Assembly (NCBI GenBank): GCA_964543385.1 | Contig: CAZIYE010000001.1 | Span: 360,001-392,000, forward strand | Reading direction: 5' to 3' | Source: an uncultured Candidatus Saccharibacteria bacterium | Lineage (GTDB): Bacteria; Patescibacteriota; UBA1384; XYA2-FULL-43-10; 1-14-0-10-43-13 | Length of the DNA stretch: 32,000 bases | Made by a program: the position numbers and the translations under genes | In this document: one piece after another, positions 28,400 to 30,398 of the stretch | How positions within the stretch are numbered: position 1 is the first letter of the stretch | How the letters are laid out: the number at the start of each line of letters is the position of its first letter | The notes under the pieces: generated by a model | Told to the model about the DNA's origin: nothing | Databases searched by the model: none | The model's input: the letters and a program-made list of their open reading frames with translations, nothing else

Positions 28400-28414
28400 A
28401 GTTTTTTAGAATAA

Positions 28415-28430
28415 ATTATCAATTGATAAT
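28415..28430. promoter_or_regulatory. perfect 16-bp palindrome upstream of the CA-like gene (candidate operator)
   Basis: ATTATCAATTGATAAT lies 16 nt upstream of the ATG at 28399. Confidence 0.3.
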
Positions 28431-28502
28431 AATTCTACCACAAAGCCCATTTTGTTCAACAATAATATAGACTAAGCCAACATTTTTAGTAAACCAGAAA
28501 AA

Positions 28503-29009
28503 TTAATATTTGATTAGATTTCTCTGGTTTCCTGCCGAACACATCCTGTGTCGGCCGGAGATTTTCCCCAGACTCGTTGTCCGAAAGTCTGGTTTGGTTT
28601 TCTTGTCCATTGTCGTCGGATAGACCGTATATATCCAATAATAGGTTTTTCCGACTTTTCGAATTTCACTACCAGTAACTCGGCAGGCATTCGCTCCCCA
28701 GTAGTCGACAAGGAGTTGCGAATACTCCACGATCAACTGAGCTTGAGTATGATCATCGTTATCAGGGATAAGGACATCCGCTCCATACTGGAGAGCGATA
28801 ATCTTAGCCTTAGGCAAACGAATGATGCCACCGGCCAAGCGACTGACCGCCTCCTCACGAGACATAACTGCCAGGCTGACCTGACGGTCTGCTTTCTTGT
28901 GGAGGGAAACACGATGCCAGATAAACAAGCTGGCAAGCAATGTGAACCACACAAGACAGAGGATGAGAGACCATTTGAAACTCAATTTCACGGTGAGTAC
29001 CCCTTTCAA
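28503..29009 (-). CDS. hypothetical N-terminally membrane-anchored protein (GC-rich orphan)
   Basis: 168-aa ORF with a TTG start (GTG alternative 6 codons in) and a GAGGA SD. One TM (WSLILCLVWFTLLASLFIW). Composition is about 57% G+C (34/60 at 28801-28860). No motif recognised. Confidence 0.45.
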   Translation of the reverse strand: MKGVLTVKLSFKWSLILCLVWFTLLASLFIWHRVSLHKKADRQVSLAVMSREEAVSRLAGGIIRLPKAKIIALQYGADVLIPDNDDHTQAQLIVEYSQLLVDYWGANACRVTGSEIRKVGKTYYWIYTVYPTTMDKKTKPDFRTTSLGKISGRHRMCSAGNQRNLIKY

Positions 29010-29100
29010 AGTGCATTCCTCGGAGGAACGTTATTGTTTTTTACCAGAAAAATGACTGATTTTCAATCAGATCAACACAAAGTAAGACAAAAATAGAAAT

Positions 29101-29129
29101 TTGAAATTAAACAAAATATTATTTATAAT
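29101..29129 (+). promoter_or_regulatory. near-consensus sigma70 promoter driving the RNA candidate
   Basis: TTGAAA (29101-29106), a 17-nt spacer, then TATAAT (29124-29129). Confidence 0.5.
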
Positions 29130-29134
29130 CTTTA

Positions 29135-29289
29135 GCAAGCTGAGCAGTCCGCCAATAAACCATGACTAGAAAAGCACTCCTATATCTTGCGAAAGCAAGT
29201 GCGGACTGAGGTTCATTTAAATGTGGTTTTTAAGCCGATGCTTGCGTACCGTGCGGTATCCTCTTCTGGATTGCCGCACCGTTTTTGTT
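29135..29289 (+). ncRNA. candidate structured small RNA or cis-regulatory leader, unclassified
   Basis: The region is bounded by the promoter above and an intrinsic terminator. It contains P1 GCAAGC (29135-40)/GCTTGC (29240-45), P2 CAGTCCGC (29145-52)/GCGGACTG (29201-08) and a GNRA hairpin CTTGC-GAAA-GCAAG (29186-99). No long ORF is present. Confidence 0.4.
29251..29289 (+). terminator. intrinsic terminator
   Basis: GTGCGG..ATCC-tcttct-GGAT..CCGCAC stem (6+4 bp) followed by CGTTTTTGTT. Confidence 0.65.
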
Positions 29290-29352
29290 ATATGGCAAAA
29301 ATGTGAATCCGCTATTACCATATTTATATTTTACCGTCAATGATATATATAC

Positions 29353-29382
29353 TTGACGCTCCAATTTGTGTAATGTTAATTT
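29353..29382 (+). promoter_or_regulatory. candidate atp operon promoter (extended -10)
   Basis: TTGACG (29353-58), then TGtTAATTT (29374-82), about 30 nt upstream of the atpZ ATG. Confidence 0.35.
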
Positions 29383-29414
29383 ATTGTCAAGGTAATAAAG
29401 CCCTACTTATTTTT

Positions 29415-29645
29415 ATGAAAAAAACCTTACTCTTTTCCTTTTCGCTGATTGGTCAGATCGGCTTCTCAGTAGCAATCCCCTTACTAGTATTGGGACTTTT
29501 GGGTCGCTATCTGGATAAGATAGCTAGCACATCTCCCTATCTCTTTCTGCTAGGGCTAGCCTTGGCTACTGTATTTATTTATTTTTATTTAAGACAGCTA
29601 GTCAAAAAATCGATAAAAGAGTTCGATAAATTAAACAAAGAGTAG
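29415..29645 (+). CDS. atpZ: AtpZ/AtpI-like small membrane protein of the F-ATPase operon
   Basis: 76 aa from the ATG at 29415 with two TM helices and the pattern GFSVAIPLLVLGLLGRYLDK...SPYLFLLGLALA. It immediately precedes atpB. Confidence 0.65.
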   Translation: MKKTLLFSFSLIGQIGFSVAIPLLVLGLLGRYLDKIASTSPYLFLLGLALATVFIYFYLRQLVKKSIKEFDKLNKE

Positions 29646-30398
29646 ATGGAAATTTCCCTTGCCGCAGAAAAAATAGCTCACATAGGAGAAATGCCAATCA
29701 CCAATTCAATGGTGACTAGTTGGATTGGCTCAATTATTTTAATTGTTTTCGCGCTCGTAGCTACCAGAAAGATGAAAATGGTTCCAACTGGTGTACAAAA
29801 TGTTTTCGAGTTTGCTATTGAATCACTCTACAATATGGCAAACAGCGTTATCGATAATGAAAAAGCCACCAGAAAATACTTTCCCCTGGTAGCAACAATA
29901 TTTCTTTTTATCATTTGTAATAATTGGCTTGGCCTGCTTCCTGGCGTCGGCACTATAGGAATACATGAAGTGATACATGGCAAAGAAGTCCTAGTGCCGC
30001 TTTTCCGCTCAGGCAACGCTGATCTAAATATGACGCTGGCTTTGGCTATCATTACCGTACTGGCTATTCAAATTTTCGGCATTGCAGCTATTGGTGTATT
30101 CAAATACGGCAAAAAATTCATTAATTTCTCAAATCCAATTAACTTTGTTGTCGGTATTCTAGAATTAATTGGTGAAGTTTCTAGAATTATCTCTTTCTCC
30201 TTTCGTCTTTTCGGCAACGTATTCGCTGGTGAGGTTTTATTAACTGTTATCGCATTCATCGTACCTTTTATTGCCCCACTACCTTTTTACGGCCTAGAGA
30301 TTTTTGTCGGCTTCATCCAGGCTCTTGTTTTCACAATGCTTACTTTAGTATTCATCAAATCAGCTATTACTGATCATGAAGCAGAACATGCACATTAG
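29646..30398 (+). CDS. atpB: F0F1 ATP synthase subunit a
   Basis: 250-aa polytopic protein with the conserved Arg region SFSFRLFGNVFAGEVLL. Confidence 0.92.
   Translation: MEISLAAEKIAHIGEMPITNSMVTSWIGSIILIVFALVATRKMKMVPTGVQNVFEFAIESLYNMANSVIDNEKATRKYFPLVATIFLFIICNNWLGLLPGVGTIGIHEVIHGKEVLVPLFRSGNADLNMTLALAIITVLAIQIFGIAAIGVFKYGKKFINFSNPINFVVGILELIGEVSRIISFSFRLFGNVFAGEVLLTVIAFIVPFIAPLPFYGLEIFVGFIQALVFTMLTLVFIKSAITDHEAEHAH

Follow-up and report, generated by a model that had tools for sequence, protein, structure and literature searches.

The stretch of DNA analysed here (32,000 nt; hereafter the window, to which coordinates refer unless a contig is named, features being on the + strand unless noted) contains, just upstream of the atp operon, a short region that starts with a promoter-like sequence, ends with a terminator-like hairpin, and can be folded in more than one way in between. 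The locus raises the question of whether this region is the leader of the operon that follows it or a gene for an RNA in its own right. The first-pass annotation of the window had seen in it the logic of a riboswitch or attenuator, because several of its segments could pair in mutually exclusive ways, and had named a standalone sRNA as another option. All the features which that annotation listed are present where it placed them. The genome under study (G000), that of an uncultured, ultrasmall bacterium of the CPR, is 0.9 Mb in size, in 4 contigs, with 38% G+C and a completeness of 98.7%.

Promoter, terminator and homologues

The promoter spans 29101-29129 and consists of a -35 hexamer TTGAAA (29101-06), a 17-bp spacer and a -10 hexamer TATAAT (29124-29). 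It had been called near-consensus, rightly so: it scores 11/12 and is the top-scoring site within 28400-30000. Matches of at least 11/12 are not rare: the 0.9-Mb genome has 95, against a chance expectation that we roughly put at about 50. The genes for RNase P RNA (G000:C2:94699-95025, - strand) and tmRNA (C2:32381-32768, - strand) each lie immediately 3' of a sigma-70-type promoter matching at 12/12 or 11/12, so that RNA genes of G000 are marked by canonical promoters.

Three homologues of the element were found, one in the genome G008 and two on the metagenome contigs L126 and L138. All are single-copy and lie just upstream of the atp promoter in the same orientation. The G008 homologue came to light by reading upstream of atpB in 24 relatives; it shares AAGTGCGGAC...GTTC...AATGTGG with G000. 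The other two were found through a search of a large protein collection with AtpB, which yielded about 30 proteins at least 78% identical, and inspection of the encoding contigs (14 sites among the metagenome contig loci). The AtpB of L126 is 94% identical to that of G000 and the AtpB of L138 83-84%; related AtpB proteins carry the label Candidatus Berkelbacteria or Patescibacteria. The loci are contained in the Logan runs SRR12261227 (G000), SRR32414321 (L126) and SRR30681629 (L138).

In the homologues, it is the hexamers and the position of the promoter that are kept. In L126, both hexamers are identical to those of G000, and the spacer has diverged. The promoter reads TTGAAT-17-TAGTTT in G008 and TTGCAA-17-TACTGT in L138, at the same distance from the first helix of the RNA (P1, below) as in G000. 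All four members thus have a -35 of the form TTGnAn, a 17-bp spacer, a -10 of the form TAnnnT and a fixed distance to P1. Transcription would start near 29134-29137, a few bases before the first helix.

At the other end, the first-pass annotation had placed an intrinsic terminator at 29251-29279 with a U5 tract. The terminator is indeed there (29248-29289): a hairpin at 29248-29282 is followed by the U-rich tail UUUUUGUU (29282-89), in which the T5 run occupies 29282-86, and is worth about -20 kcal/mol. That of L126 is almost the same; in both, it is strong (about -20 kcal/mol) and has a canonical tract of U5-U7. In G008 and L138 the GC hairpin is long, but the tail is only AUUU in G008, and the U run of L138 lies 5 nt past the stem. 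Because their U tracts are weak or displaced, read-through into atp is plausible in those two.

What lies between promoter and terminator is non-coding. No ORF is common to the four members on either strand. The 15-codon sORF at 29162-29209, for which the first-pass annotation had seen no SD, is not real: it is not conserved among the members, and L126 has no ATG at the position of its start (29162). The frame that opens at 29221, where AUG-UGG is conserved, reads on through the terminator, and a 1-nt indel puts it out of register between G000 and L126. It is accordingly very improbable that the transcript is the mRNA of a tiny protein or a type I toxin, using either the sORF or the frame at 29221, even though its 5' and 3' ends pair as they do in hok-type toxin mRNAs and a GAGG stands 9 nt before the AUG at 29221. 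By eye, several other motifs were considered and rejected, namely, a leader peptide at the AUG-UGG, CsrA-type GGA decoys, a T-loop and a guanidine-III-like motif; they were unconserved, lay outside loops or had no match to a covariance model (CM).

The view that the region, from promoter to terminator, is one separate unit encoding a structured RNA holds up. Promoter and 3' hairpin are both kept in the homologues. A positionally conserved promoter of its own, an intrinsic terminator at the 3' end and a non-coding body are what is expected of a standalone small-RNA gene.

The fold of the core

When folded alone, each of the four cores (116-118 nt) takes, as its own minimum free energy (MFE) structure, the same rod architecture, P1-B-M-P2-P3. 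P1, which closes the rod, is formed by 29140-29149 (CUGAGCAGUC) and 29237-29244 (GAUGCUUG). It has 10 pairs, of which 5 show changes on both sides among the members, and 91.7% of its cells in the structural alignment are paired. Next comes helix B, in which 29157-29164 (AAACCAUG) pairs with 29222-29229 (UGUGGUUU); all of its 8 pairs are formed throughout (100%), and both sides have changed in 4 of them (AAA/UUU vs UGG/CCA, and A-U to C-G in L126). The internal loop after helix B is A/U-rich and 7x7 nt in the type 1 members and 3-5x7 in the type 2 members. Beyond the loop are helix M (helix 3; 29172-29176 with 29210-29214), which is 90% paired, has changes on both sides in 4/5 pairs and is weakest in G000 (3/5 pairs), and P2 (helix 4), where UCC (29178-29180) pairs with GGA (29203-29205) in all members (100%). 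The rod ends in the apical hairpin P3, CUUGC-GAAA-GCAAG (29186-29199; strands 29186-90 and 29195-99). Here a G-C pair has become A-U by a double change in L126, and the strands of the type 2 members are CCGGC/GCCGG and CCGA/UCGG. This hairpin had been described earlier as a GNRA hairpin: the stem stands, with 95% of its cells paired, but the loop sequence does not, being GAAA, GAAA, UCAC and UGAAU across the four members.

Conservation of sequence is highest in the 3' half (29197-29229; AAGUGCGGAC ... GUUC ... AAUGUGG), where the columns UG-CGG-C and AUGUG are invariant. Most of the conserved letters are within or beside helices, such as CACA/UGUG in B, UCC/GGA in P2, and GUGC; loops and junctions are variable. 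Besides the promoter hexamers, the homologues keep the stem that closes the ends and the hairpins at the apex and at the 3' end.

In the structural alignment of the four members, the rod comprises 31 pairs; 114 of the 120 cells (95%) hold standard pairs and 17/31 pairs show changes on both sides, but these counts are inflated toward the rod, since the alignment was hand-fitted to the structure. The sequences are nearly colinear and were anchored on the conserved 3' strand; the hand alignment was run through MAFFT with N for gaps, and all 136 columns were kept. RNAalifold on this hand-made alignment gives identical helices. Plain MAFFT alignments were off the structural register, and RNAalifold failed on those. 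In control runs, none of 500 shuffles reached any of five measures, and sliding the 3' partners by 1-3 columns left 31-40% of the cells paired and 1-5 compensatory pairs. The unbiased support for the rod comes from the independent single-sequence folds. Among these, that of G008 is very well defined (z = -6.2, the centroid being the same as the MFE structure). In G000 the folding energy is modestly below that of shuffles (z = -2.5 on the + strand, -2.9 on the - strand). An earlier model, which took P1 to be compensatory throughout between G000 and G008, P2 to be the orthologous helix and B to be pseudoknotted, was dropped, as L126 and L138 show the nested rod to be conserved. Taken together, these comparisons make it highly probable that an RNA gene exists at this locus and that its product has the rod fold.

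How, then, do the pairings proposed from the one sequence compare with this fold? They were a closing stem P1, an 8-bp helix P2, the apical hairpin and a set of swaps among them. In P1 as then drawn, GCAAGC (29135-29140) pairs with GCTTGC (29240-45), that is, with the same 3' strand as in the conserved fold. A closing stem is real, but this register is an alternative one, with 68% of cells paired among the four members. The P2 of that model joins 29145-29152 (CAGTCCGC, CAGUCCGC) to 29201-08 (GCGGACTG) and is a pairing specific to G000. Only its core of 3-4 bp, UCC/GGA, pairs in the homologues (72% paired overall); in L126 it amounts to GUCC/GGAC plus a wobble, and the 5' strand, 29145-52, belongs to P1 in the conserved fold. 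A check by covariation gives a divided answer, the changes on both sides supporting the helices of the rod (17/31 pairs in the hand alignment) and not the 8-bp P2. In G000 the two folds are nearly equal in energy. The MFE structure is the nested rod at -28.4 kcal/mol, against -27.6 kcal/mol for the best fold with the 8-bp P2 enforced, and the ensemble centroid is the earlier combination of P1, P2 and hairpin, not the MFE rod.

The swaps fare no better than the long P2. The exchange of partners among the four related segments (1:2 plus 3:4 in place of 1:4 plus 2:3) is weakened in L126 by the same change that preserves P3; in G008 and L138, where P1 and P3 have unrelated sequences, no such exchange can take place. 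The repeat GTGCGG does occur twice, at 29199 and 29251, but the anti-terminator that it was proposed to form with CCGCAC is absent in G008 and L138: the pairing reaches 6 bp in G000 and L126 and at most 4 bp in G008 and L138, and a local terminator of about 12 bp competes with it. The call of a riboswitch is thus to be corrected: the neat 8-bp helix and the swaps of a single sequence are not conserved.

Relation to the atp operon

The atp operon has a promoter of its own, as the first-pass annotation had noted. Terminator and atpZ are separated by this promoter and a palindrome (29335-29382 in all); the promoter is complete, and the operon keeps it in relatives that lack the RNA. The palindrome, CGTCAA-N12-TTGACG (29335-29358), is outside the RNA and overlaps the -35 of the atp promoter, which its right half constitutes. 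In the form (C/G)GTCAA-N12-TTGAC(G/A), at fixed spacing, it recurs at 28 of the 35 loci upstream of atp in the order, the majority of which have no RNA gene. A dimeric regulator might use it as an operator; alternatively, it may consist of two -35 boxes placed back to back.

The core is also independent of the terminator. When the 3' arm of the terminator is removed, the fold of the core is unchanged and the 5' arm of the terminator stays free, in G000 and in G008. Since the core folds identically without that arm, core and terminator are separate modules. This independence, along with the atp operon having its own promoter in relatives without the RNA, leaves the riboswitch logic unsupported.

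These results bear most directly on the reading of the region as a cis-acting leader, riboswitch or attenuator, in which the upstream promoter feeds atp and the structured RNA sets the level of terminator read-through. Some observations fit it. The element is directly upstream of, and co-oriented with, atpZ-atpB in 4/4 members despite differing left neighbors, its layout (promoter, P1-closed domain, terminator, operon) is that of terminating riboswitches and attenuators, the U tracts are weaker in G008 and L138, and G000 has the alternative 8-bp pairing near-equal in energy. However, unlike in riboswitches, domain and terminator neither overlap nor compete, a full promoter intervenes before the operon, and the alternative pairings are unconserved. 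No conserved anti-terminator exists, the core being independent of the 5' arm of the terminator, and the GTGCGG/CCGCAC pairing falls from 6 bp in G000 to at most 4 bp in G008 and L138; neither the long P2 nor the swap pairings are kept. The promoter between terminator and atpZ is found order-wide and serves relatives devoid of the RNA, and in close relatives the element has been deleted with the atp leader unchanged. No riboswitch model of Rfam matches at E <= 10. We consider a cis leader unlikely. Pairing of the RNA with the operon's own leader does not stand out either: with RNAduplex, each RNA paired with its own atp leader no better than shuffles did.

Other features of the operon deserve mention in their own right. 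At about 29395-29414, in the 5' UTR of the atpZ-like gene and about 10-15 nt before its ATG, there is a hairpin AAGGC-loop-GCCUU, which occurs at the same position in L126-L137. It is present in many relatives, is weaker in G000 and may hide the only SD-like bases. The spacers of the atp operon behave as variable slots (G000:C1 ~394170-394470; L149 4890-5188; L150-L152). The atpG-atpD spacer holds homologous antisense Cys-rich mini-ORFs in G000 and G008 (MADCGRDDDLCPCSCMDTADCP... vs MAECGRPDDQCPCSLMDTADCP...), a sense ORF of 126-128 aa in G017 and G021, and nothing in G019.

Distribution, known RNA classes and probable role

The element is narrowly and patchily distributed. A CM built from the four sequences (R2) found, among 97 atp-containing loci, only the four members; of the genomes searched, 44 for the order and 151 for the class, only G000 and G008 gave a match. 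There was always one copy. A CM built from G008 alone (R1) had missed G000, also when run without filters. When the element was searched for by BLAST in 41 relatives and in G000, nothing but the element itself was returned, and short words revealed no paralogue and no long antisense target. An exact scan for the motif found G000 and G008 only within the order and, in all GTDB contigs, two chance matches in unrelated phyla. A metagenome scan with AtpB recovered mostly the same genomes, and an exact look-up of AtpE led back to the same organism (0 differences). Nothing occupies the site in L127-L130, L132-L137, G017 and other GTDB relatives.

In a tree of AtpB the carriers are scattered: G000 and L126 branch basally in the clade, G008 and L138 are found among non-carriers, and at least 3 changes are needed. 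One such change can be seen directly. The AtpB of L132 is 96% identical to that of G008 and the flanks are near-identical, but L132 is without about 158 nt, corresponding to core and terminator. Part of the promoter spacer is retained (L132 1200-1265 vs L013 950-1150), marking a recent deletion. One origin at the locus followed by repeated loss would be the simplest history, and repeated loss in turn implies that the RNA is dispensable. The RNA would date back at least to the ancestor of a small Berkelbacteria-like clade and have kept its place immediately upstream of the atp promoter. The left neighbors differ: L126 and L138 have a Pro_CA_2 gene there, and so does G000, with an orphan gene for 168 aa inserted in addition, whereas G008 has a PurM-like gene. 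The orphan of G000 (28503-29009, - strand) is a GC-rich, membrane-anchored ORF of 168 aa and constitutes an insertion, Pro_CA_2 being directly left of the RNA gene in L126.

Such a distribution might suggest a decaying or selfish cassette without present function, one among the promoter-RNA-terminator inserts around CPR atp operons. Patchiness and repeated loss are what such a cassette would show, and the adjacent GC-rich orphan gene is itself an insertion relative to L126. However, the 17 compensatory pairs, and the hexamers kept while the promoter spacer diverges, point to both the RNA and its expression being under purifying selection, so that a functionless cassette is improbable. The element is also single-copy, and no terminal repeats, target duplications or copies elsewhere were seen.

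The RNA matches no Rfam family, and the first-pass annotation had likewise recognized no known one in it. The Rfam 15 cmscan of the window at gathering score returned only tRNAs. At E <= 10 nothing meaningful overlapped the element, and the same was true of the three homologous loci at E <= 5 (4227 Rfam models). A literature search brought up nothing on CPR small RNAs or SRP loss. By these comparisons, it is a new, narrowly distributed family of non-coding RNAs of about 150 nt.

6S RNA (RF00013) is a rod of about 180 nt with a large central bubble that binds the sigma-70 holoenzyme and templates pRNA. Like 6S RNA, the element is an independent gene, with paired 5' and 3' ends and a rod comprising an internal loop and an apical stem. 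Unlike 6S RNA, its core is only about 116 nt, its internal loop is small (no more than 7x7), it has no CM match, and it occurs in 2/151 genomes of the class. The resemblance invites the idea that the RNA is directed at RNA polymerase, as a mini 6S-like decoy or as a put/EAR-like antitermination element that aids the polymerase through a cassette-interrupted atp operon. It would then be a dedicated regulator of ATP synthase expression acting on RNA polymerase. Such a role would explain why the atp promoter is the sole conserved neighbor and why G000 and G008 share the antisense mini-gene between atpG and atpD, which G017, G021 and G019 lack. The rod with its closing stem, internal bubble and apical stem, a genome without a 6S match and the cassettes in the atp spacers are all in keeping with it. 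On the other side, neither RF00013 nor any other family matches, and the core, at about 116 nt and with a loop of 7x7 (type 1) or 3-5x7 (type 2), is far smaller than 6S RNA. Presence in 2/151 class genomes, with loss in near-identical relatives, is unlike a housekeeping RNA. The hairpin of the antisense cassette has no U tract on the atp strand, and the co-occurrence with the mini-gene amounts to 2 vs 3 genomes and is confounded by ancestry. We regard an action on RNA polymerase, of either kind, as a long shot.

The small SRP RNA (4.5S RNA; RF00169) is likewise a single rod-like hairpin of about 115 nt, and RF00169 and RF01854 are both unmatched in this genome, as is RF00169 in 41 relatives, which would suit a divergent SRP RNA. 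However, the domain IV motifs (the GNAR loop and the symmetric loop) are absent; the apical loop is unconserved, there is no AGCA-type symmetric loop, no CM matches, and just 2/44 genomes of the order carry the element. Neither Ffh nor FtsY was found in G000. Besides the SRP RNA models, PF02978 and PF00448 were without a match in this genome, TIGR00959 gave only an 18.5-bit P-loop match, and its six frames contained neither DTAGR nor the GKTT and TKxDG motifs together; SecY was found at 333 bits. RF00169 had matches in 0/41 genomes of the order. PF00448 gave P-loop-level matches only, in the 41 genomes of the order and in 61 across the phylum (G000 and 60 others), in a search whose controls were positive in 14/14 known genomes. 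Since the genome has no detectable Ffh or FtsY and the apical loop is unconserved, an SRP RNA identity is excluded for practical purposes and is the least credible of the alternatives. In the genomes searched no SRP pathway was found; its absence throughout the phylum, if these profile searches are a guide, would be surprising.

A further likeness is to stand-alone bacterial small RNA genes with an intrinsic terminator, a generic class to which orphan Rfam 'Gene; sRNA' families belong and with which the element shares a sigma-70-type promoter, a length of 100-200 nt, a structured body, a terminator, a narrow range and dispensability. It differs from generic sRNAs in having no conserved single-stranded seed, in having its conserved letters in helices, in having no known Hfq/ProQ-type context and in matching no Rfam family. 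We favor the reading, also among the options of the first-pass annotation, of a dispensable stand-alone small RNA that probably acts in trans on a protein partner, and put its probability at roughly 0.6. It builds on the promoter, fold and terminator that the homologues each have of their own. Association with the atp operon, the only conserved neighbor in 4/4 members, is a caveat, as it would be seen with a cis-acting element too.

According to this stand-alone reading, the sigma-70-type promoter would start transcription just ahead of P1, and synthesis of the non-coding RNA of about 150 nt would stop, in G000, at the strong intrinsic terminator. The 116-nt core folds into one irregular rod, with P1 joining the 5' end to the segment that immediately precedes the terminator and, above it, helix B, the 7x7-nt A/U-rich internal loop, helices M and P2 and the apical P3. 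Because the conserved letters are in B, P2 and the adjacent GUGC while the loops vary, we infer that the function resides in the folded rod. The rod would be recognized in trans by a protein or other partner, rather than exposing a single-stranded seed or serving as a ligand-sensing leader.

Taken alone, this is an orphan small RNA, and its importance is thus moderate. To our knowledge, almost no regulatory RNAs have been described in CPR/Patescibacteria. The element adds to them an RNA family with covariation support (from four sequences in a hand alignment), a defined fold and a fixed genomic address. Its presence or absence between near-identical relatives is a polymorphism that would serve as a natural experiment once transcriptomes or cultures exist.
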